A stretch of 64,000 bases of DNA from positions 242,296,001-242,360,000 of the forward strand of contig OZ024742.1 in the NCBI GenBank assembly GCA_964016885.1. The letters are read 5' to 3'. Position 1 is the first letter of the stretch. The number at the start of each line of letters is the position of its first letter. This document shows positions 3,254 through 55,942 of the stretch, piece after piece. Under the pieces are notes generated by a model. It saw only the letters and a list, made by a program, of their open reading frames with translations, was not told the origin of the DNA and searched no databases. The translations under genes and the position numbers were made by a program. This DNA comes from Eledone cirrhosa. Taxonomy: Eukaryota.

Positions 3254-3432
3254 ATAGGAACCAGTAAGACCCCGACAGCTGAGCTCAAGCCGTATCGACG
3301 GCTAAGCCGTCGAAACGGCTTGAGCTCAGCTGTCGGGGTCTTACTGGTTCCTATTACCCACTCTACTACCTCAAGTATTGAGTACTTTGGTGCGTTATGG
3401 TCCACCTGGTTCCTTACCACATTTCCTTCGTT
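3254..3432 (+). mobile_element. Family A fold-back PLE pLTR-like element carrying the 3' half of a hammerhead
   Basis: Palindrome 3254-3354; GAAA-cggc...gctg-TC-gggg at 3312-3338; tail homologous to 8081-8230(-), 18813-18911 and 40572-40775; flanked by (TA)n. Confidence 0.7.
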
Positions 3433-4906: not shown

Positions 4907-4909
<3 letters not shown>

Positions 4910-5535
4910 TTTCTGAATTTGTTTAGCAAGATTCTTTATCTGAAAATGTGTGTTGAAACCGATATTGTTATACTTTGGGAGGGTCATGTTGCCAATAAGA
5001 AACACAGGCACTAGATGCTTTCACTCCAATTTATTTTAATAAATTTATAAATTTAAGAATTTATAAATTTCCGGTTGGTTGGTTGGGTGGTTCCACATCC
5101 GGACGGTTGTTTATATATTGTCAAATTTCTTTCGTCACACATTCTGTGATCTCTTCAGTGACTGGGGATTCTTTTTTTGTTTTTGTGCCTCTCCTTTGTA
5201 TCTGTCCTACGCCATCTTGCTTTTGTCTGTGTTGGGTGCTTAGTTTGCGCATGTATTACATCCGGGTGTTTGTGTGTGTTTATATTTGTTTATTTATTTG
5301 TTTATTTACAAAGGAGAATCACAAAAACAAAGAAAAGAATCCCCAGTCACTGAAGAGGTCACAGAATGTGTGACGAAAGAAATTTGACACTATATGAACA
5401 ACCGTCCGGTTGTGGAACCAACCAACCAACCAGAAATTTATAAATTCTTAAATTTATAAATTTAATTTATAATAAATTGGAGTGAAAGCAACTGGTGCAT
5501 GTGTTTCTTATTGGCAACATGACCCTCCCAAATTA

Positions 5536-5540
<5 letters not shown>
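4907..5540. mobile_element. Family B fold-back HHR element
   Basis: About 235 bp inverted arms (~4965-5200 vs ~5305-5540); HHR at 5346-5388 with its mirror at ~5120-5162; (TA)n on both sides. Confidence 0.75.
5346..5388 (+). ncRNA. Minimal type I hammerhead ribozyme
   Basis: gtca-CTGAAGA-g-gtcac..gtgac-GAAA-gaaa-TT-tgac; stems I and II pair, stem III is minimal. Confidence 0.65.
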
Positions 5541-5589
<49 letters not shown>

Positions 5590-5972: not shown

Positions 5973-6444
<472 letters not shown>

Positions 6445-7056: not shown

Positions 7057-7445
7057 TTCGTTTCTGAATTTGTTTAGCAAGATTCTTTATCTGAAAATGT
7101 GTGTTGAAACCGATATTGTTATACTTTGGGAGGGTCATGTTGCCAATAAGAAACACGCGCACCAGTTGCTTTCACTTCAATTTATTATAATAAATTTATA
7201 AATTCAGGAATTTATAAATTTCCGGTTGGTTGGTTGGTTCCACAACCAGATGATTGTTTATATATTGTCAAAGTTCTTTCGTCACACATTATGTGACCTC
7301 TTCAGTGATTGAGGATTCTTTTCTTTGTTTTTGTGCCTCTCCTTTGTTCTTTCCTACGCCATCTTGTTTTTGTGTGTGTGTTGTGTGCTTAGTTTGTGCA
7401 TGTGTTACATACGGGTGTCTGTGTGTGTTTATATTCGTTTATTAT
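7057..7445 (-). mobile_element. Family B HHR element copy
   Basis: Near-identical to 4907-5295; minus-strand CTGAAGA-ggtcacataatgtgtgac-GAAA-gaac-TT-tgac at ~7268-7308. Confidence 0.75.
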
Positions 7446-8230: not shown

Positions 8231-8345
8231 TATATGTATATAGCTATATATTATTAGAGAAACACATAGTATTTTGTGTGTATATATAAATATATAAATA
8301 TATATATATATATATACAAAATACTATATGTTTATCTAATGATAT

Positions 8346-8532
8346 ATAATTGTTTCTACTTTAGGCACAAGGCCAGCAAATACCCAGTGCATTACTGGTA
8401 CTTTTATTTTATCGACCCCGTAAGGATGAAAGGCAAAGTCAACCTCGGCGGGATTTGAACTCAGATCGTAAAGGGACGTAACTATGCTGGAAAGCATGGC
8501 GTCCGACCCTCTACCGATACTGCCAATCCAAT
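8346..8532 (-). mobile_element. OK-like SINE
   Basis: A box, B box (gagttcaaatcc) and gcctttcatccttacggggtcgataaa central domain on the minus strand. Confidence 0.85.
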
Positions 8533-8534
8533 GA

Positions 8535-10472
8535 ATAATGCTCCAGAAACTGTTAAGCGCTTCTAGATGTAGTAGAGAACATGGGCCCTGGCATCAGCAT
8601 GTAGCTATTACCAACATGGGATTAACTGCATCCCATTCGGATTTTGGCTGCATTAAGCTATGTCTACGACACTACCCGGATCGTGCATTGCTACTTCTCT
8701 GTCAGGAACACTCAAACTTCGTCAGATCTCGTAGATTCTTCGAACAATCATCATATTCTATTATACCCAGTCTTGTATTGACTGAATTTTCCATCCTATA
8801 TTCCAAAGTGTTTGGGTTTCACATTGAAAATTAAGACTCGAACCTACACTACGTATCACCTGATACCACTCCTACTCTTCTATCATCTATATCTATATTT
8901 ATAACCCTATCATCTATATCTATATTTATAACCATGTATTCTCCAACCCTGTTACCTATTGTTTATTTACTACACCTTGTTCTGTATTTTATTTCTTCTG
9001 TATTTTGATATCTTCGATATTTTCTTATTTACTTCCATTTTTACTCCCACAATTACCACCCTTCGTATGACTGTATTTTATTCATTTTATTCTCCTTATA
9101 TACTTATCCCTTTACTCATCTGTTACCTAAAATTAGCACACAACACTAGAATATTACTTTCTGCACCCTTTATAACTGTTTATCTTTAATTACTCCCCCT
9201 ATCCACTCAGGATTCACACTGCATATAAATTGAAATAACCCGGGCTTTTAAACTTCACACCAATCGTTTGGTACACGCGATGATCCGATGGCTATGACGG
9301 CTTTCCCGCTTGCACGCCCAGCGCTTGTCTCGGTCAACCTTCCTAGAGTGCTTGGAAAAATAAATTTCCCTTTCTTTCGGTAAACGAAAATACTCTGAAT
9401 CCGCCGTGTCACCGGTTAGTGACCGCCAAACAGTACTCTTAAATTTTAGGTTTAATCTTTAATCCTAACTTTAAATTCTACCCTAAAAAGTTATCATGAA
9501 TATCAAAAGTATATTTAACTTTTACATAAATGCCTCCTTCTACTAGTTCTATAACTAAATCCCCCACTAGTGTGAATAACTAATAATCGTTTGGTATACG
9601 CGTTGATCAGCTGGTGACGGCCTTCCCGTTATCACCCCCAGCGCTTGAGTTGGTTAACCTTCCTGGAGTGCTTGGAAAAATAAATGTTCCTTTCTTTCGG
9701 TAGACGAAAATACTCGGAACGATTGACACGCCTTTGGGCCCTGAGTGGGCTGGGAATCCGTCACGCTATTGGTTATTGACCGCCAAACGGTACGCTTAAA
9801 TTTGAGCTTAATCTTACTTTTTTTAATCTTAACTTTATATTCTACCCTGAAACTTTATTATGACTATCAATAATACATTTTACCTTTTCATAAATGCTTC
9901 CTTCTGTATATTCTTTAACTAGATCTCCCAATTTTAAACTTACATCTTACTTTTCTAACCTTTAATCTTATCTTAAATTATATCTTTTAATTCTAATTTT
10001 ACATTTCTAATATTTAATCGTAATTTCTAACTCTACATTCAAAAGCCTACTGTAGATCCGTCAACTATATTTTTAATTTATTTCTTAGTACTTTTTATCA
10101 CTTCTTACTAACTCTTATATGTAACCTGATCTCACCGCTAGCATCTGTCCACGACGTGGTAGTAGTAATATACACTATAAACGTACGGCCCATTGACCAG
10201 ACCGACAGACAAGATTAAGTATAATAGAATCCTCACTTGGAGGCAGCCGCCTGGACTAGTAACTGCTAATTTCTGGCCACCTTCTCCTCTTGAGCATTTC
10301 TCTCTGCTTTTCAGCCCCTTGGATTGTGTCTATTATTATATTCCTTTGTTGGATGAATTTAAGAATACCTGATGATGTCACCGGATTCATACTGAACTCG
10401 GTCATTGAAATGTTCATAGTATAATAAATATTTAAGGAATTACACTAGTCCAGCCTCCTGTCATTTTATAAT
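8535..10472 (+). mobile_element. Family E: PLE-derived element with long 3' region, two tandem structured-RNA modules and a terminal HHR
   Basis: Tandem ~320 bp duplication (9262/9585); HHR at 10365-10422; the last ~170 bp are homologous to the termini of 41065-43008; weak GIY-YIG C-terminus-like RRFFEQ segment near 8730; the 5' boundary is uncertain. Confidence 0.55.
10365..10422 (+). ncRNA. Type I hammerhead ribozyme
   Basis: atac-CTGATGA-stem II-GAAA-tgttca-TA-gtat followed by aataaa. Confidence 0.75.
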
Positions 10473-10490
10473 TATATATATATATATATA

Positions 10491-14848: not shown

Positions 14849-15410
14849 CATATCTCCATAGTTAATTTACCTGGCAATCAATGTTTATCATTGATTGATC
14901 AAGGGTTAAAAATGCAGATATAAATATATATTTATAGTCTATCAAAGCTCTTTCGTCACACATCTGTGACATCATCGGTGGTACTATTATGTTTCCCCCC
15001 GTTGTACTGTAATGCCTCCGCCATTTTTATTTTATTTATTTATTTATTATCGTCTCTGTCTCTATTTGCGCATGCGTTTGCGCGTGTGTTTAATGTTTGG
15101 TGTCTGTGTTTTTGTTTTTGTATTCTATCTTTGTTCACTAGTGTCTGTTTATATGTGTTTGTTGTTATTGTACTTGTGTATATATTTATTTATTTATTAT
15201 TTCTAACCGTTTGTCAATTAATGATAAACGTTGATTGCCAAATAAATTAACTATGGAGATATAAACGATACAGAAGCGAAAACCAACCCAAACCAAACAG
15301 TGGGTGTGTTCTGTTATTATTTCCGGCAATATTATAACAATATGACCCTCCCCAAGTAGAACAATATTTGTTTCGACACACGATTTCATATCAAAAACTT
15401 TCAAAAACAT
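14849..15410. mobile_element. Family B-related fold-back element
   Basis: Inverted repeat ~14850-14912 vs ~15200-15262; minus-strand CCGATGA-tgtcacagatgtgtgac-GAAA-gagc-TT at ~14940-14980; atgaccctcccaa tail shared with family B. Confidence 0.65.
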
Positions 15411-19098: not shown

Positions 19099-19958
19099 TA
19101 ATAACTCATATTGATACCGTGTAATTAACAAGCTCAAAGTATAAATACTGAGTATTATGTAATAATATATGTAGTAATAAACACAGTAATTTGTGTGTCT
19201 AAAATACGAGGCTTGAAATACCATGTTGGTTTGACAAATTTAACCTGAAGCAAACGAAAAATACAGAATAAAATATACTGACCGTCTCAATAACTATTTC
19301 ACCTCCCGGACAGAGTGGAGATTTAATCTGTTTCGCCCCGAGAATTGTGTTTGTAACAGATAATCCGTAGGCATCACCAGCAGGAGATTAGATCAAATGT
19401 GACAAACACCTAAAACTAATAGCCACACGAATGAACATTTCACCTCAATTACAGGGTATGAATATGAGTTATTAACTCTACATTTTAGTTGTATTACGGC
19501 TCCCTAACTAGGTGAGCTTATAAGTTGGGTGTAATAAGGCTAGTGTTTCTAGCCTATCCACTCACATCACTTTTGACTTCCTGCACGCGAAGTGAAATGT
19601 TCATTCGTGTGGCTATTAGTTTTAGGTATTTGTCACATTTAATCTAATCTCCTGCTGATGATGCCTACGGATTATCTGTTACAAACACAATTCTCAGGGC
19701 GAAACAGATTAAATCTCCACTCTGTCCAGGTGAGGAAATAGTTATTGAGACGGTCAGTATATTTTATTCTGTATTTTTCGTTTGCTTCAGGTTTAATTTA
19801 TCAAACCAACGTGGTATTTAAACCCTAGTAATTCTAGACACACAAATTACTGTTTTATTACCACATATATTATTATATAATGCTCAGTATTTATACTTTG
19901 AGCTTGTTAATTACAGGGTATCAATATGAGTTATTAACTCTACATTTTATTTGTATTG
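19099..19958 (+). mobile_element. Fold-back plus tandem HHR element (462 nt unit)
   Basis: About 345 bp arms 19099-19443/19592-19935; direct repeat 19447-19495 vs 19909-19958; canonical HHR. Confidence 0.8.
19649..19734 (+). ncRNA. Canonical type I hammerhead ribozyme (GUC cleavage after 19726)
   Basis: cctg-CTGATGA-tgcc...ggc-GAAA-caga..tctg-TC-cagg; all three stems pair. Confidence 0.85.
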
Positions 19959-31775: not shown

Positions 31776-34700
31776 TTACAGGCTGATAAAGAGAGAAGGT
31801 CCATTCACACGGGCGATTCTCGCTACTTTCATCCACCTTTCATAAAACTTGCTGGGGTAGAGCACCTCTCTCTCCATTCTGATCCTTCTCTTAAAATGGT
31901 ATTTAAAGAAAAGTACCAGTTGTTGGCCGGAGAGAAAGGTGTCCGACCTCAGCCCTTTCAAACGTGTCCACCATACCACCTCTTTCACCATGGTTATTAC
32001 ACAGAGGAAGACCGCCTCTCCTTCATATTTGAAGGGGGAGGCGGCTTGATCGTTACAATGGACTCAGTGGTCAACCGAATTGGTCCCACCCGTGACAGCA
32101 GTCGTTCGACATAGCCCCACAGATTGGCAACGCCCGAGCCGTGTACCAATGCATCCGCAACAGTTTCCTCGTCGCGCACGCATCTGGGACAGATTTTTTT
32201 CGAGGGGTCCCTACCCGGGCGCCCGTGTCTGTAGAGCTTTTCTCGAACGGGCAGCGCCCCTCGGTAGCACTGCCAGGCCAGGGACTTCTGGAAGTTGTCC
32301 ATAGGTCCCGGGCCAAATGTCGTCCCGAATAGGCTGGTCAGTTCGTCTTCCTCCAAGCCTAGGGCTTGTCCGAGGGCGTCGTCGCACCTACTAACCACCA
32401 GCCGCTATAGAATGACGAGGTGGAGTCTCCACCGATAGCCGGGTCCGCCCGCCAGAGAGCCGTGAGCACCTGGACACACTCGGTGTGCCAGGCGCCTAGT
32501 TTCTCGGTCTTTGCTTGACCCAGGACTGTAGCTCGGTGAGCGAGACGAGTCTCAGAAAGGTTCGCCATCAAACGGGCCCACACCGGTTGACCGGTGAGGA
32601 ATACCTGGAGGTGCCGTAGCCTTAATGCGTGTTTACGCATCAACAGCCAAGGCATCCCTAGCCCTCCTTTCGAAGGGTGTTGACAGCAGATGGATCTCCT
32701 CACCAAAGGAGCCCGCTTCTTCCAAAGGCATTGGAAGAGTGCGCGCTCCATTTTGGTGAGCGTTTCCCTTGGACAAGGCACGACCGACAGGCGGTAATAG
32801 ATGACGGACTCTATATAAGCGTTCGCCACCTCCGCCCGACCTTTCAGGGATAGTTTGCACTCAGCCCACTTCCGCGTCAGCGCAAACACGCTGTTTGATA
32901 CCTCACCCCAGTTCTTCTCCATCTGTAGGTCTGGCCCGAACCAGACCCCGAGAAACTTCACCGAGCCCTCCGTCCGACGATGCCGTTGGAGGCCATCGGT
33001 TTGCCCTTCCACTCGCCAAGATGCAAACCGACTGACTTGTCCCGGTTCAGCTTAGCCCCTTTAAACGTTTCGTATTCCTCCAGTAAGTGCCGTTCACTCC
33101 GATTTCCGAGGTGGTTGACACGATTACTGTCAGGTCATCGGCGTAGGCCGACACCTCTTTCCGCAATCCTGGAACCAAAGGGAAGCCCTGTAACAACTCC
33201 AACTTCCGCAGCAGTGGCTCTACGGCCAATACATGCAGAAGGGAGGAGAGAGGGCATCCCTGTCGGATGGACCGCGTGATTTCGAACGGCTCCGAGAGGT
33301 AGCCGTTCACCTTGACCCTTGAGCAGATGCGGCTGCTGTGCATGGCAGTGATCCAGCCCTTGAAAACGGGTCCGAAACCTGCCGCCACTAACACCGCATC
33401 CTGATAACGATGTTCGACCCTATCGAACGCTTTAGATTGATCCAAAGCCGGGTTCGTTCCCAACCCTCTCTATGATGTATCGCATGAGATGGAGGTTGTC
33501 GTGAATGGACCTGGACGGGATGGCGCATGTCTGCGCATCTCCCACCAGGTTGCCCACGACAAGTGCCAACCTCTTTGCTAACACCTTGGCCAAAATCTTT
33601 AACTCTACATTTAGCAGTGTTATGGGCCTAAAATTACTTATTTCATCCCCCTTGTTCTCGTCCTTCCTCACTAGCGAGACTACGCCCTTGGTCACAGAAC
33701 AGGGAATTCTCCCGTTCTTTTGCCAGTTGCAGTAGACCACTTCGAGGAGATCGAAGAACAAGTCCGGCATACTTAAATACAGTTCGTATGGAAGACCATC
33801 GAGGCCCGGAGATTTGCGTCTCCCGCATTGGCTCAGCACGTCCCCTATTTCAGCAGCTGAGATCGGCTTCTCGCAGGGCTTCGCCTCCTCGTCCGAAAGA
33901 CGCGGCAGGTCGTCGAGGTATGGACCGAGGTCCCCATCCCCATCCGGCCCCTCGTCCCTTCCGAACAATCCGGCAACGTGCCTTTGAAAGGCCTCGCACA
34001 TCTGCTTAGATTCAAGGATCACCCGTCCATACTGGTCTCGCAAAGATCGGATAGTGGATCTAGTCCCACGTTTGGCTTCTGTCACGCGGGCCCAGCTAAC
34101 AGCTTTGGTCCCCTCGTTTCCCATTTTGCTTGGAACAACACAGCCTTCGTGTTTCGCGTCGAAGAACTGGCCCAAGGCCGTTCTCGACGCTAGCAGTCTG
34201 GATACGTCGCCGCTTCTAATTGCCTCTTCTACACTATCTACCAACTCCCTTTCCTTCCTATTTCTATCTGAGGCTAACTCCTTACTAACTCCTATTGAAG
34301 CTACTCTAATCTCTCTTTTGAGAGAGTCCCACCACCTGCTATTGACGATGGCGCCTGTCAACCGCTCCTTAACTAATGTACTAATCCGGTTCCTGTAAGA
34401 TTTACTTGCCGGTAAGGACAAGTTGAGCTTCCAGTAACCGGGTCCCTGTCTATGCGTTCTATCAAGGTTGACAATGGAGGTCACTAACGTGTGGTCTGAA
34501 TAACCAGCCATGAGCCTTTTTGGACAACTTAAAAAGTCCCTATCCTTATTTCTAACTAAGAACCTATCTAGGTACGATCTAGATTGACCGCTGGGGTTTC
34601 TCCAAGTCCAGTTTGGCACAGTCGGAAAATCTTGTCGATATCTATCGGCCAGGTCGAATCGGCCGATTAACCCCTTGAGGCTGTTACAACCCCTCTATCA

Positions 34701-35148
34701 GGACATGCCCCTACATACCATTCCAGTCCCCCACTAAAAGCAAGGAGCGGGACATCCCTAGAAAAGTCTCCAGACGATGGAAGAAGTCCGGCCGTTTTGA
34801 CCCAAAAGGGCCGTATACGGCGACCAGCCTAAAAGCTCCGCCTTCACCACTGCCAATGTCCAGAACCATCAGTCGATCCTCCGGGTCCAAGTGTACCGTC
34901 TGTGTAGCGAGACCCAGATGTTTTTGCAGCAGAACGACAACCCCACCCCCACCTCCGGGCTGACAGAGAGATGCGTGCATCTCAAAGTCATCAAAGGTGG
35001 GGGCCAGCTGTCGCACGCTGCTGATCCGGGCCTCGCAAATAACCATCACATTTATACATCGTGACCTGAGGTAATTTAGAAGCATTGCTTGCTTCCAAGT
35101 TGAGCCCAGGCCACGCGCATTTAGACAACCTATTCTCAACACAGCCAT
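31776..35148 (-). pseudogene. Tx1 ORF2 (APE endonuclease-RT), broken into about 6 frames
   Basis: CLNARGL, GDWN, YLDRFLV, SDH, GPGYWKLN, KSPGLDG, FRPITLLNVELKILAKVLAKRL, LDQSKAFDRV, RQGCPLS, YADD, KFLGV, GGLGMP, CPRC. Confidence 0.92.
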
Positions 35149-35771
35149 GTTGGTGGTAAAGAGAAAAGGCACTTACCTCTCTGCGTCCCGGGTACTGGGC
35201 CGCACAATTTCCATGGGGGATGGGTTGTTGGGTGGGGTGGTGGTTTGTGGAAGTGTAGGGGCATCAGTGTGTAGTGGGGTTTTGGTGTTTGGAGTTGTGT
35301 GGGTGTCTGGGGGGGGGGGGGGGTTAGGAGGACACGGTTAATGGGTCTGACACAGGGGGGCCCCACGTCCTCTTTAAAAGTGTCTTTTAACGTTTTGTAA
35401 ATGTCCATTGGGGCTTTTATCATGTTTAGATGGGGAAGCCCCGCTGCTTGTGCGAAATTCGAACCTTCGGTTTTTATTAAGTTGTTATTATAAATAACGT
35501 TTAACAGTTTTTTGTCTTTTTGTATTTAAATAAGTATGTGCAAATTTTTCTTTTTGCGTGATGTTTTTTGTTTGCTGTTGTTGTGTGTTTTTTTTTTTTG
35601 TTGATGTATGTGTTATGTCTTGTGTTTGTATTTGTGTTCCTGCGGTGCGTTTTCTTTTTTTCTTTTAACTTTATGAAAGTACCCCCCCCCCCTCGTCTGA
35701 CGGCGAAAGGGGGTCGTCTTCGTTATTCGAGGGGAGGGGTTCATTTTCGGCTCGTGTTTGTGGTGTGGGTG

Positions 35772-36935
35772 TTATTGTATTTGTTTTCTGTGTGGGGGTA
35801 TGGATGGGATTGTTTTCAGTTGTGTTTTACCTTGTGGTGTTAGTTGTTTTTGTGGTGGTGGTGGCGGTTGGATTGTTAGTGTTGTAGTTGTTGGTGTGAG
35901 CAAAATCGGTATTTTTTTGTTTGCTTGGGAACAGGCAGCCCTCAGGTGACCTCTGCCACCACAGAGATAACAAGTGGTTCTTCTACCCTCCACTGTGATG
36001 TGTAAGTAGGCAAGCCCATCCAGCAATATGCGGTCGGGGATCCTAGCAATTCGTTCTGGCTGCATTTGCACCAGAACTTGCAGGCTAGTTCCACCGAACA
36101 CGTTGCTGGAAGACTTACGGACCGAAATTACTGCATCCTTTTTCAAATCGAGGAGGTCACACAGTACCGCCCAGAAATCAATATCTGGATCGATACTGTG
36201 TATGGTCAATCTTTGTGTTTTTCTTCCCAAATAAGTGGGGAAGAAAGTAAATAAGGGGAACACATTTGGGGCTAGGGAATGTTTTTCCGCCGTCAATTTA
36301 TCTTTCATTCGGATGGATAGACTACCGTAGAGTCTATCCTTCCGAATGAATACAGTGTTTTTCAGATGATCTTTTAACGCCAGTTCAATCTCTGTCTGTG
36401 TGAGTTGTACTGGCTTACGGGTTTTGTTTGATATTGTCCTATAAATAATAGTTTTTAAGCTATTTTCCTTTTTTAGTTCTGGGAGAGAATTTAAAGAAAA
36501 TAGACCATTCTCCTCCAAAGTTATATACTTCCGTGCATTTTCCATTTGCTGGGCCATGTTCGAAATGTCAATAGATTCGTTCACGATAGTTTTTTTATGC
36601 CTTGCGCGAACGTCATTTTGTTCGCCCCCTCTCTGTTTAGATTTGTCGAAATGTGGTTTTCTTGTTTTTTGTTGTTACAATTTATTTTTTGTTGTGTTTG
36701 TGTTATTTATGTTGGTGTATGCGTTCACATTTTTTTCCCCGTTGAGGTTAGACTCCATTTTTTCAAAATGTTCACCTATATTTTCAGTATCCGAGAGACT
36801 TGTAGTCACAGCTACTACCTCTCTTTCACCTTTGCTGGTGGGCGTGGCACCGTGAAAAGTCAAAACGGGATCCATTAATTTTGGCAATTTCACCGAGTCA
36901 ATTTTTTCATTAGGGTTAGGTTCCATTTTTTTCAA
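35772..36935 (-). pseudogene. Tx1 ORF1 (gag-like, zinc knuckle), interrupted
   Basis: CYLCGGRGHLRAAC (CX2CX4HX4C) preceded by VEGRR; upstream segment at 36675-36935; may continue into 35200-35770. Confidence 0.8.
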
Positions 36936-40194: not shown

Positions 40195-40528
40195 GTTTTT
40201 GCTTAGCAGATTTCCTGATGTAAAGTCATGTGTTGAAAGACATTGTTATAATTGGGAGGGTCATATTGCCAATAAAAACACACGCACCAGTTGTATCTTC
40301 GTTTCAATGTATTATTAGTTAAGTAACTAATCCATTCATCGGTTAATTTAGTAACCGGATGATTGCTTATTTGTTATTTGACCTGTTAATTGTAAAAGGT
40401 CTCACGTCACGCGTGTGTGGCTTCTTCCATGATTATTCATGGAACTCTGTGTCTCCGCTTTGTTCTAATTTACTCTATTTTGTCTTATTGACAAACCGAT
40501 GAATAAAATTAGTTACCTACAAAGTATA

Positions 40529-40576: not shown

Positions 40577-40775
40577 AAAATGCATGACCCCGACGGCAGA
40601 GCTCAAGCCGTTTCGACGGCTATTTCTGAACTATCCAGAAATAGCCGTCGAAACGGCTCGAGCTCTGCCGTCGGGGAGTCATACATTTTCCTATTACCCA
40701 CTCTACTACCCTAAGTATTGAATACTCTGGTGCGTTATGGTCCATCTGGTTCTTCACCACAACTCCTTTTGTACC
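40572..40775 (+). mobile_element. Family A fold-back copy
   Basis: Palindrome 40572-40694 centred on gacggctatttctg/cagaaatagccgtc; GAAA-cggc..gccg-TC-gggg. Confidence 0.75.
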
Positions 40776-40871: not shown

Positions 40872-40920
<49 letters not shown>

Positions 40921-41064
40921 TTATTTAGGTTTGAGGTTCACCACTGGATAGAGCTGGTCAATTCCGTATGGTCAATCTTAATGTAATAATATGGAGAGGA
41001 CTCCACGTAAAGCAGTTCAACCGTCTTTGTTTTTGTAGTTGGTGGTGCTATTACGGAGTTAAAT

Positions 41065-43008
41065 ATTATAATGAAATGACAGGAGGCTGGACTTGTGTAA
41101 ATCCTTGAAAGGTTTATTATACTATGATCATTTCAATGACCGGGTTCCGTATGAAGCCGGTGATATCATCAGGTATTCGAAATACAATAAGTGAATGCAA
41201 TAGATAAAATTCATGGGGCTGAAAATCAAAGACCGGAGGACGACCGCCATCCAGCATCTTCCACCTTTGCTGGTCGCCCTCAAGTGACATGGCTAAAGCT
41301 TATAGTGTGCTCCTACCGGTCAAATAGAGGAAAACAGAAAGGGAGAGGAACATAAGTCAGCGTTAATATCATGCCAAAAGAAAGAAGAGAAAAAAAGGGG
41401 GAAGGAAGAAAAGGAAGAAGAAGAAAAGCCAGGGATAATGTCCAGCTACAAGGAGAAAGACAGAAAGAAAGAGGAAGAAAGGTCGGTATTAATGTCAAAC
41501 TACAGTCAGGCCAGGCATGGCGCGAAAAAAAAATTTTCAAAGGGACCCGTATCTTAACAGCTACTACCGGTAAAATTTAGGCAAACAAAAAGGGGAGAGG
41601 AAGATAAGTCAGCGTTAATATCATGCCACAAGAAGAAAGACAGAAAGGAGGGGGAAGAGAAGGAAGAAAAGGAAGAAGAAGAAAAGTCAGGGTTAATGGT
41701 TACAAGAAGAAAGACAGAAAGAAAGAGGAAGAAAGTTCGGTACTAATGTTATTCTAATGTTATTTTATAATGTTATTCTGAATTCTTTCAACTTCATCCT
41801 ATAAATCTAAACAATAATTTAACGTTCCAACTTTCTGTCGGACTGTTGGGTTGGTTTTCCTGGCGGCGGGACCGGCCCCCTGGCGCATAGGCCTACCTTG
41901 AGTGCTTTGGAAAAATAAATTTCCCCTTCTTTCGGTAAATGAAACTACTCGGAGTGGCTTGATCCGCAGCAGGGGCCCGGCGCGTAGCCGGTTTTTTGAC
42001 CGGCATATAGTACCTTTAAATTACAGATCTAATCATAATTATTAGATGTATCACGCCTCTCTTTACTTATGCAAATCCCCCTCCTGGGTAAATGAATAGT
42101 ACTGGTTTTGTACAAGGATGGCCTAACGATGCGGGCTGACTTCCCGCTGGCGCACCTGAAGCCTGTTATACATTCCTAGAGTGCTCGGAAAAATTGATTT
42201 CCATATATTTCGGTACGCGATACCACTCGGAGTGGGTGGGCTGCGCAAGCCTGTGATCGCCGCATGCTGTTTGACGGCTAAACAAAGACATAATCTTTAC
42301 TCTATAATAAAATTTAAGTTTCTTCATAAAAGACACTTTCTTTGCTTAAACCCCGCAACCTTAAAAATGTTAAACTGTTTAACTTTCAATTTTCTTTAAT
42401 TTTATAATGTTAATATTAAAGATTCATTTTTTAACTTCATCCTATAAATCTAAACAAAAATGTAACGTTCCAATCTTCTGCTCACACATTATAACATACA
42501 AATCCCCATTATATTTACCTCTGCTAAGATACGGGTCCCTTTGAAAATATTTTTTTCGCGCCATTCCTGGCCTGACTATAGTCTGACATTAGTACCGAAC
42601 TTTCTTTCTGTATTTCTTCTTGTAGCCATTAACCCTGACTTTTCTCCTTCTTCCTTTTCTTCCTTCCCCCTTCTTCTCTCTTCTTTCTTTTTTCTTGTGG
42701 CACGATATTAACGCTGACTTATGTTCCTCTCCCTTTCTGTTTTCCTCTATTTGACCGGTAGTAGCACACTATAAGCTTTAGCCACGTCACTTGAGGGCGA
42801 CCGGCAAAGGTGGAAGATGCTGGATGGCGGTCGTCCTCCGGTCTTTGATTTTCAGCCCCATGGATTTTATCTATTGCATTCACTTATTATATTTCGAATA
42901 CCTGATGATATCACTGGATTCATACGGAACCCGGTTATTTGAAATGATCATAGTATAATAAACCTTTCAAGGATTTACACAAGTCCAGCCTCCTGCCATT
43001 TCATTATT
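41065..43008. mobile_element. Family E fold-back element, about 1.95 kb, with an HHR in each arm and two structured modules inside
   Basis: About 490 bp inverted arms (41067-41560 vs 42520-43008); HHRs at 41119-41176(-) and 42898-42956(+). Confidence 0.85.
42898..42956 (+). ncRNA. Type I hammerhead ribozyme with palindromic stem III loop
   Basis: atac-CTGATGA-stem II-GAAA-tgatca-TA-gtat, then aataaa. Confidence 0.75.
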
Positions 43009-43061
43009 ATATATATATATATATATATATATATCCATGACTGTGTGTGTGTGTATATAAA

Positions 43062-43390
43062 CACGTGAAAGCGCATGGCTAAGTGATTAAAGCGTTGGGT
43101 TTGCAATCATGAGGTTGTACGTTCGATTCTCGGACCAGATGATGCGTTGTGTCCTAGAGCAAGACACTTTATTTCACGTTGCTTCAGTCTACTGAGCTCT
43201 AGAAATGAGTGACGACAGAGTTGTATCGGCCATTGCCTTTCCTTTGAGCAAAATCGGTGGCGCTGAGAAGGCAATCTGATATGCATGGGTGGGTGACTGC
43301 TGTTCAACCATAAACAAGCGTGCCCGGTAGCGTACCTTTTCTAAGCGCAAATCTATGATCATTCTCGACTGAAGGACATGTTTACCCAAT
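43062..43390 (+). mobile_element. CORE-type (OR-like) SINE, second subfamily
   Basis: A box tggctaagtgatt, B box gttcgattc, gagcaagacactttatttcacgttgc; related pieces at 7585-7760 and 59092-59200(-). Confidence 0.7.
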
Positions 43391-54559: not shown

Positions 54560-55942
54560 TCAACGTCTCAAGCCTAGAAGGACCTCTATATATAATTTCC
54601 TGGCTCCTCACCCAGATCCTTAAGCCTATATCTTCACCTTCCCCGAGCATGTCAGTGGCTCCGATGAATTTATATAAAGATTCCACCAACTCCAACCAGA
54701 CCAACTTAGACTCAATAGGTACGCCTTTAGCCTCGACGTTGTCTCCCTCTACACTACAGTCCCCGCTCACCTAGCTGTCAACTTATTGACTGACTGCATA
54801 ATCTCCAAAAACATTTACTGCTCCGGCCTTCACCCGGCAGACATACACCAGCTTCTAGCTGTCTCGGTGGTTAATACTTACTTCACCTTCCACCACTGCA
54901 CATACAAACAGACAACAGGACTACCTATGGGATCCAGCCAATCGAGCGTGCTAGCAAGCACTTATAAGAAGCAGGTGGAAAGTTGGGCCTTCAACACCTA
55001 CTACTCCCCTGCCTTCTTCACCCGATATGAAGATGACATACTCATCTTTACACCATACCGTGAAGAAGCAGACAAAATATACACAGCATTCTCCAGCATG
55101 GACGTTAACATAAGGTTCAGCATGGAACACCCTCATGACACTGGATCCCTCTCCCTGCTAGACTTCCGACTCAAAGTAACGGAACAAGGCGGCATCCACA
55201 CCAGCTTCTACAGAGAAGCCGCTAGCAGAGATCTGTTCGTCCGTTTAAACTCGGCCCTACCCCTTGGTGACAAGTCAGGATACATAAGGAATGAACTGAA
55301 ACGTATCCGGAATAAATGCAGCACCACAAGAGACCGAGACACGCACACCCTACACTTCTTGGAGGTGCTTAAGCTAAACGGTTACCCAACATTCACTGTG
55401 AATCACGTTAGAAATAGGAAACACCTCATTTGAAGCACGAACTCCACCATCACATGCTTCCTGAAGATCCCACATTTCAGTGATGACACAACAGCCATCC
55501 ACAGGGCCATCCGAAAAGAAGGACTAGACTTACAACTAGCTCACTCAGGACCCTCACTATGCAGACAACTATCTAGGAGACAACCTAGAGAATACAACAG
55601 ACGCAGAACGCTGGATATCTGCCCCACCGATAACACAAACATATGTCATCAAGTATATGTCTTGTACAGATTCCAGTGTGATAAATGCGACAACTTCTAC
55701 ATAGGTAGCACCACCAGACACCTACACATCAGGATTAAAGAACACATTAACACTAACGCTTCCTCATTCAAGAAACACTTAAAGAAATGCAAAAACACCA
55801 CACAAAAAATATAACAGGTAAGGTTGAAACAAAAGAAAGAAACCTCAGCAATCTCAGAATTATGGAAGCATTAATCATAGCCAAAACACACCCGCAAATC
55901 AATAATAGACTAGAACTAAGGCTACTGGAGTCTACATATTAG
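54560..55942 (+). pseudogene. 5'-truncated Penelope-like element, Naiad-like RT plus C-terminal GIY-YIG endonuclease
   Basis: ISWLLTQILKP, FSLDVVSLYTTVP, GLPMGS, RYEDD, LSLLDF; after an in-frame TGA (55431) FLKIPHFSD...VLYRFQCDKCDNFYIGSTTRHLHIRIKEH; after a frameshift LRIMEALII...PQINNRLEL. Confidence 0.88.

Follow-up and report, generated by a model that had tools for sequence, protein, structure and literature searches.

Paired copies of a predicted rod-and-head RNA module in two hammerhead-bearing elements of Eledone cirrhosa

The 64-kb stretch of Eledone cirrhosa DNA analysed here (the window) contains a fold-back element with two divergent copies of a structured module in tandem, and a related element to its left carries two more. 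The question raised by this locus is why the module comes in pairs: how old the pair is, whether both of its members are needed, and what such a module might do. In what follows, the modules are named c1 to c4, E1 is the left element (about 9262-10475) and E2 is the fold-back (41060-43010).

The modules and the elements that carry them

E1 holds c1 (9262-9436), which has a 37-nt deletion in its 3' arm, and c2 (9585-9793), whose rod is intact, while E2 holds c3 (41838-42013), predicted to form an intact long irregular RNA rod with its head at the tip, and c4 (42098-42288), a divergent copy with weakly pairing arms. All four lie on the + strand, and the count of two per element in both elements of the window was the same with nhmmer, with a pattern and with a covariance model run with its filters off. 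These searches were all built from the four copies, and beyond the four the next-best match had an E value of 0.29 with nhmmer and 0.53 with the covariance model, with nothing below. The pattern for the four heads, which fits them by construction, matched four times in the window and never in 100 dinucleotide shuffles.

The part that holds the copies together is the head, found at 9346-9395 in c1 (the best preserved), 9666-9715 in c2 (where P2 is weakened), 41900-41950 in c3 and 42179-42228 in c4, again all on the + strand. In c3 it is predicted to be a three-way junction with P1 (GAGUG/UACUC), P2 (GGAAA/UUUCC, loop AAUAAA) and P3 (loop GUAAA). In c4, P2 is intact with loop AAUUGA, P3 has a U-U mismatch and loop GUACG, and P1 is all Watson-Crick: the closing helix reads GAGTG/CACTC there and GAGTG/TACTC in c1-c3, so that one pair is G-C in one copy of four and G-U in the other three. 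The AAUAAA of the P2 loop is present in three of the four heads and lost in c4. Over 60 columns the heads are 92% identical between c1 and c2, 88% between c1 and c3 and 85% between c2 and c3, with c4 at 75-78% to the others (77% to c3). BLAST by itself was enough to link the heads (c3-c1, E 9e-16; c3-c4, E 1.5e-6). The arms of c3 and c4 align far less well, with z 2.3 on the 5' side (6 of 200 shuffles equally good) and z 1.1 on the 3' side (41 of 200), and in general the head is far better conserved than its flanks. An earlier sequence-only reading of E2 had described heads that remain recognisable, at exactly these E2 coordinates, between largely replaced stems, with a fully Watson-Crick closing helix in the fourth copy, and it was right on each of these points.

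The architecture of E2 is best understood from its right arm (42521-43010, + strand), the true 3' part of the element, which comprises a pyrimidine-rich tract, a hairpin, a hammerhead and the terminus, followed by (TA)n at 43008-43034. The left arm (41060-41560, - strand) is an inverted copy of this 3' end, agreeing with 42521-43010 at 458 of 482 aligned bases. After it come another inverted fragment (41560-41749, - strand; a copy of 42586-42765 at 89.4% substitution-level identity) and a direct fragment (41762-41837, + strand; a copy of 42399-42480 at 82.9%, 79/96), which adjoins the base of c3 and is older than the arms. The inverted duplication extends beyond the 1.95 kb of the fold-back: in reverse complement, 40802-40883 matches 43008-43089 at 92.7%, so that the duplication crosses the (TA)n and takes in DNA outside the element, among it the beginning of a dispersed SINE-like repeat. 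An unrelated insert of 145 nt (40915-41059) lies within the left side of the fold-back.

E1 has the same 3' end as E2, but no inverted arm, which argues that the fold-back is a feature of the E2 insertion and incidental to the family. The 3' domain of E1 (10239-10475, + strand) has the hairpin, a hammerhead variant and a terminus at (TA)n, with 138 of 162 bases identical to 42842-43007; the two termini are 85% identical. The hairpin 5' of the hammerhead (42793-42838, + strand; folding z -2.53) covaries with 10239-10284, its 11 outer pairs showing two changes on both sides and three on one side, with three pairs broken in one row. Terminus, upstream hairpin, modules and a junction segment between the modules are what the two elements have in common. 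From the last module to the 3' hairpin there is no significant similarity between them (z 0.1-1.7), and yet the head-to-ribozyme distance is nearly equal (654 and 674 nt), a combination that points to islands of conservation. Between the ribozyme cut and the element end, a small stem-loop with an ACAC loop occurs at 42972-42987 and 10438-10453, with folding z of -0.26 and 0.95; it is reminiscent of the AC-rich stem-loop at the RT start of the anole PLE.

Both elements close with a hammerhead variant and then (TA)n. The E2 copy on the right arm is of type I (42898-42956, + strand; predicted cut after 42952) and is laid out as a 4-bp helix I, CUGAUGA, a long helix II, GAAA, a palindromic helix III and an AUA triplet. 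A descriptor scan found a second type I variant in the left arm (41119-41176, - strand; predicted cut after 41123), and E1 has its own at 10365-10422 (+ strand; predicted cut after 10418). The minimal type I core (CUGANGA, GAAA, NUH), with the 4-bp helix I and the AUA triplet, is present in all three; helix III has the palindrome UGAUCA in both E2 copies and the near-palindromic UGUUCA in E1, and a U stands before GAAA in all three, so that the G10.1-C11.1 pair is absent. The descriptor matched the window five times, whereas 60 block shuffles gave 0.1 matches on average (maximum 1). Three of the five are in E1 and E2, and the other two are in two further fold-backs, 19099-19936 and 6027-6168 (core matches near 19655 and 6101).

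Neither element codes for protein: the longest stop-free frames are 99 and 87 codons and match no profile. The window does hold a broken, 5'-truncated PLE ORF remnant (54565-55927, + strand), with RT followed by GIY-YIG and flanked by TA and simple repeats, which is 50% identical to its best homologue. A PLE profile built from six of eight homologues matches just this remnant in the window at iE <0.5; no DNA similarity of the remnant to E1 or E2 was found with nhmmer in the window, and no PLE coding remnant was found close to either element. On these sequence features, E1 and E2 are best classed as non-autonomous PLE derivatives or truncated non-coding ends of PLE copies. The only direct repeat in E2 that could bear on a direct pLTR is the internal one of 76 nt (41762-41837/42399-42480), and it lacks the 3' end.

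The surrounding DNA is AT-rich, with many microsatellites and SINE-like repeats, and its repeat landscape seems octopus-like. An abundant SINE-like family is present in both orientations at 8340-8530 and more than 15 further sites, one copy bordering the upstream region of E1. A separate repeat family (4907-5544, 7058-7443, 40198-40322 and 14931-15406) has inverted arms terminating at (TA)n, with the word CTGAAGAG at 5351 and again on the opposite arm, and a MITE-like, near-perfect hairpin repeat lies between (TA)n at 40579-40687 and about 3270-3340. Frameshifts interrupt a LINE at 32359-36674 (- strand), which has an ORF1 with a zinc knuckle, along with frames for RT and an endonuclease-like domain, and which we take to be L1/Tx1-like from its appearance.

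Searches of catalogues and literature did not turn up the module. Rfam gave 145 matches up to E 5 across the window, none on the modules, and two and three weak matches in scans of the two elements, none on any head. ARAGORN found no genes, GTDB scans with the head pattern and with the hammerhead pattern found nothing in either case, and blastn of 41838-42290 found no match among phages and a single 25-nt match among plasmids (E 0.03), taken as chance. A SECIS reading (RUGA/GA core after a UGA-bearing ORF) finds RTGA at no shared position in the four modules, no ORF and no Rfam SECIS. A sigma-70/terminator scan, a test unsuited to animal DNA, stayed at shuffle level, and an HDV-like reading of a TTCCCG motif was set aside, since the helices on either side of it appear not to suit all copies. 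The available portions of the PLE literature, including PMC8557442, PMC8967140, PMC11892584, PMC13725137 and PMC13282606, yielded no description of a rod-and-head motif, and none was found under Penelope, pLTR and three-way junction together. Exact short-motif searches took in the supplements of PMC8557442 and PMC13282606; in the accessible text of the Craig et al. (2021) supplement the head and 3'-end motifs were absent as exact short motifs, a kind of match that line breaks or single changes would defeat, and the module was absent from those octopus Naiad 3' UTRs that were examined. The simplest summary is that a real RNA motif, probably uncatalogued, sits in a known kind of element, a family that may already stand in Repbase or Dfam as an unclassified or Penelope repeat.

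The predicted fold of the module

On the ribozyme strand, each module is likely to fold into a long, irregular rod of RNA with the three-way-junction head at its tip. The prediction is clearest for c3, in which rod and head together are the confident MFE structure (-69.6 kcal/mol, with P1 pair probabilities of 0.77-1.0). In c4 the head is within the MFE, but the stems are shorter, and in E1 the rod-plus-head fold lies above the MFE by 0.7 kcal/mol in c1 and 5.1 in c2, where the P1 probability in the unconstrained ensemble is 0. When the two arms are folded as a duplex and compared with 300 dinucleotide shuffles, c2 (-59.5, z -3.6) and c3 (-58.2, z -2.6) are each equalled by just three shuffles; the duplex of c1 is not above the shuffles (53/300) and that of c4 (-42.6, z -0.9) is no better than them (59/300). 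The arm duplex is stabler on the + strand in all four copies, a preference for which G/U content may partly account.

Arms also pair across copies. The 5' arm of c1 still pairs with the 3' arm of c2 (-71.2, z -6.4, 0/300 shuffles), and the cross pairings c3/c2 and c4/c2 are significant as well (2/300 each), so that the arm test shows retained complementarity rather than coevolution specific to a copy. In the predicted ensemble of 9263-9791, the c1 5' arm and the c2 3' arm form eight long-range helices with probabilities of 0.81-0.99, and this nested fold of E1 breaks both P1 helices. A comparison in which the c1 5' arm fitted the c2 3' arm better than c2's own did, by 11 to 0, was discarded because it is biased by the c1 register.

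Variation in the head falls mostly in its loops: 5 of the 30 columns that are paired vary, as do 11 of the 21 that are not (p 0.013). Among the 19 head pairs of the four copies none has changed on both sides. Adding the proximal helix gives two such pairs, in a register chosen from c2 and c3, which is not above shuffles (99/500). Whole-module folding z is -0.61, -2.78, -1.33 and -0.03 for c1 to c4, isolated-head z is -2.32, 0.13, 0.16 and -0.11, and RNAalifold on a MAFFT alignment returns a covariation term of just -0.31. Four copies are insufficient to prove covariation or function.

The age of the pair

The sequence-only reading held that the paired arrangement predates the divergence of the two elements, citing a spacer shared between them. 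In E2 the spacer between c3 and c4 (42014-42097, + strand) is AT-rich (GC 0.33), and the junction segment (42073-42112, + strand) is indeed homologous to 9557-9596 (+ strand) in E1, with 29 of 40 positions identical without gaps (z 8.6, 0/300 mononucleotide shuffles). The homology is real, but it is not specific to the junction throughout. The gcctc...aaatccccc half of the spacer recurs 3' of c2 (9889-9930, 33/42, z 9.8), and thus belongs to the repeat unit. What is left is an 18-nt linker, 9567-9584 in E1 and about 42083-42100 in E2, which the two inter-module junctions share and of which no copy was found upstream of c1 or downstream of c2 or c4; the sequence upstream of c3 was replaced by rearrangement and carries no information on this point. 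In E1 the linker sits between the two homologous tracts. A supposed recurrence after c2 of the sequence preceding c1 proved not significant (z 1.2).

The relationships among the modules point partly the other way. Module identity is 85% for c1/c2, 72% for c1/c3, 59-60% for c2/c4 and 58-60% for c3/c4, and c1 and c2 form a tandem unit of 305 nt that is 72-85% identical. On the assumption of similar rates, 46 sites unite c2 with c1 only and 6 unite it with c4 only (p 1e-8); for c1, the corresponding counts are 34 with c2 and 12 with c3 (p 0.002). The informative sites in the module alignments number 10 for (c1,c2), 3 for (c1,c3) and 0 for (c1,c4), and the tree (c1,c2 | c3,c4) is the best in nine of nine alignments, with c4 the deepest branch; AU tests exclude neither alternative topology (p 0.08-0.42). 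With c1 and c2 mutually closest, the modules do not group by position and the second modules form no clade. Clustering of the modules by element, an outcome that the sequence-only reading had named as refuting its claim, is seen for the left element.

An ancestral pair would accordingly need later homogenisation or re-duplication in E1. Plain tandem duplication leaves no unique linker and a homogenised old pair does, so the linker mildly favours an old pair. Taken with the deep branching of c4, it makes an old pair somewhat likelier than two independent duplications with a loss, as far as can be inferred from two elements, and we lean slightly towards a pair older than the split of E1 and E2. 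The early claim is plausible on a narrower basis than the one it cited, the 18-nt linker, and the close kinship of c1 and c2 weighs against it. The divergence of the c4 head (about 23%) also exceeds that of the E2 arms (5%), which argues that c4 diverged before E2 was inserted; its P1 and P2 survive nonetheless.

Possible functions and known systems

We tentatively prefer to model the module as a protein-binding cis element in RNA, read most likely by a partner RT, with a redundant second copy. E2 would be a single insertion from a PLE family, representing a non-autonomous derivative or else the 3' portion, without coding sequence, of a copy that was truncated. Its 3' end would have been copied into (TA)n, with the 5' junction gaining an inverted copy of that end and two smaller fragments. 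The module would act as RNA, an irregular rod of 175-210 nt that is free to drift in sequence as long as pairing holds and that presents a 50-nt three-way-junction head, conserved in sequence for recognition by protein, most likely the RT-endonuclease of a partner PLE during RNP assembly. The pair would go back to a tandem duplication in which a module was copied together with its spacer, probably before the split of E1 and E2, and turnover by conversion or RT template switching would keep one good copy, leaving the second redundant or useful for avidity only.

Several properties of the locus are consistent with this model. In both elements the distance from the modules to the downstream ribozyme is about 650-670 nt, all four modules are on the same strand as the ribozyme, and the hint at RT binding in the sequence-only reading agrees with the hammerhead and PLE architecture. 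Each element has one intact and one damaged rod (c2 and c1 in E1; c3 and c4 in E2), which speaks against both modules being needed. The suggestion that two modules are functionally required is not supported, since the 3' arm of c1 is shorter by 37 nt and the arms of c4 pair no better than shuffles; the deletion in c1 may postdate insertion, which counts against the argument for redundancy. Evidence against an RT-binding module comes from the anole PLE, the sole PLE studied in vitro according to the accessible part of PMC11167929, in which the needed RNA maps to the first 172 nt of the ORF, downstream of the ribozyme, while the pLTR upstream of it is dispensable. This counts against the model unless the module follows the RT start in a tandem or circular RNA. 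A further point against it is that E1 and E2 could be linked to no autonomous partner, the PLE ORF at 54565-55927 being dissimilar to both in DNA.

The alternative that survives best, though still unlikely, is that host RNA-processing factors rather than RT bind the module and that the two copies differ in role. A donor in the linker (the hexamer GTAAAT at 42088 is weakly splice-donor-like, as noticed post hoc) and a TTTTCAG acceptor would yield spliced RNA with one module and unspliced, transposable RNA with two, and the head loops (AAUAAA; G/GUA) could act in poly(A), U1, export or cap-independent translation control. This would account for the conservation of the linker. Across 8500-10480 and 41750-43010, GTRART occurs three times, at the linkers (9572 and 42088, as GTRAAT) and in the c3 head loop, and TTTTCAG once per element, at a homologous place upstream of the ribozyme (10308 and 42849), which together outline an intron of 740-770 nt around the second module. 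However, the signals are weak and post hoc, about 4-5 hexamers of the GTRART type are expected by composition in the scanned length by our estimate, neither donor has the G at +5 of the usual consensus, and the AAUAAA seen in three of the four heads is missing from c4. Precedents are found in the consulted sections of two papers, one describing PLE 5' UTR introns that cross the pLTR boundary (PMC8557442) and the other an intron end at hammerhead helix I in D. virilis (PMC4209133).

A true requirement for both modules, for instance one per protomer of a dimeric RT-endonuclease, seems rather improbable. Two heads are present in both elements, P1 and most of P2 and P3 are kept in all four, the junction linker is common to both, and the anole PLE protein is predicted to be a dimer that acts on both strands (PMC11167929, in the part available). 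The long-range pairing of E1 (z -6.4) could even let a single rod display two heads. The nested fold that it produces disrupts both P1 helices, however, a symmetric comparison of sites, made to test for selection on this fold, gave 8 against 3 (p 0.23), and no such long-range rod was found in E2; the damaged rod in each element is a further difficulty.

About as doubtful is a passenger status of the module, which would then be an ncRNA captured from the host or a SINE-like unit, duplicated locally and independently in each element and with no present role. The c1/c2 tandem unit could be read in this way, as could the weak folding statistics and the unproven covariation. Against it, no solo copy was found in 64 kb, all four copies being inside E1 or E2, the modules have no Rfam or tRNA match (ARAGORN) and, by the familiar consensus, neither of the Pol III boxes A and B, and conservation of the head is far above that of its flanks.

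Two other readings have very little probability. The head could be a ribozyme of a new kind, self-cleaving or acting in processing, and define the RNA 5' end, given its compact and conserved junction, the E2 5' junction at the base of c3 and the frequency of ribozymes in retroelements (PMC4209133, as far as accessible), but just 10 unpaired bases are invariant among four close copies, the modules have no hammerhead core (CUGANGA in none of the four) and Rfam finds no ribozyme in them. A DNA-transposon (MITE/foldback) or DIRS-like identity of the fold-back, with modules acting as DNA, is suggested by inverted arms of about 490 bp at 95% with TA flanks, and is hard to credit when the related E1 has a single 3' end and no terminal inverted repeats, the arms contain hammerhead cores, the inverted match runs on into flanking DNA and the wobble pairs favour one RNA strand.

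The protein-binding model can be set beside several known systems. RRE and CTE elements and plant-virus 3' translation enhancers use a long stem to present an apical junction, sometimes repeated; the module resembles these in shape only, with no Rfam match. A more specific but quite improbable idea, resting on analogy, is that the head is an RT-binding or RT-activating PLE domain like CR4/5 of telomerase RNA, distinct from the region where the template starts, and that it stays paired either for loading of a dimeric RT-endonuclease or because a splice donor between the copies makes the number of modules differ between spliced and unspliced RNA. The module would share with CR4/5 a three-way junction with a small 3' stem-loop atop a long stem, a likeness of predicted topology and a functional analogy only. 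The P6.1 loop of telomerase RNA has a conserved G, unlike the head loop, whose position 4 varies (A, G, A, C), and Rfam gives no telomerase or H/ACA match at the locus with models that may miss invertebrate RNAs; nor was a domain like the template/pseudoknot of telomerase RNA identified there. CR4/5 (P5/P6/P6.1) binds an RT that is sister to the PLE RTs (PMC11892584, accessible part).

The relationship of PLE RTs to telomerase gives the locus its wider interest, because how PLEs choose their RNA, retain introns and insert inverted copies is largely open. In the portions of the PLE literature found, the conserved RNA structures are the hammerhead, a SECIS in some Naiads and one stem-loop at the RT start. 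A compact, conserved junction at a fixed position would offer a concrete assay target and a handle on the autonomous partner; if the second module is merely a redundant duplicate, the locus comes down to ordinary annotation of repeats, plus one RNA motif that is not catalogued.

The strongest parallels are with PLEs and their derivatives. PLEs are described with inverted 5' copies, a preference for (TA)n and hammerheads in their pLTRs (PMC8557442 and PMC4209133, in the sections consulted), and E1 and E2 share the (TA)n terminus and, near the 3' end, the minimal type I hammerhead whose helix I is short and whose helix III is palindromic or nearly so, to which E2 adds an inverted, truncated copy on its 5' side (41060-41560 against 42521-43015). 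Unlike an autonomous PLE, they have no RT or GIY-YIG ORF, and their hammerheads lack G10.1-C11.1. Octopus Naiad consensus sequences in the available part of the Craig et al. (2021) supplement show the same (TA)n preference and similarly atypical hammerhead cores, and by eye the order of words around the hairpin upstream of the CUGA-GA core (10230-10300 and 42785-42845) is like that of the octopus Naiad 5' region given there. Non-LTR retrozymes are reported, in the accessible text of bioRxiv 10.64898/2026.07.22.740005, to be non-coding, non-autonomous PLE derivatives with a type I hammerhead, kin to PLE terminal repeats. E1 and E2 resemble them in being non-coding and having a type I hammerhead, and differ in arrangement: a retrozyme has a hammerhead in every tandem unit, whereas E1 and E2 have one per element end and a module-plus-spacer unit that carries none.
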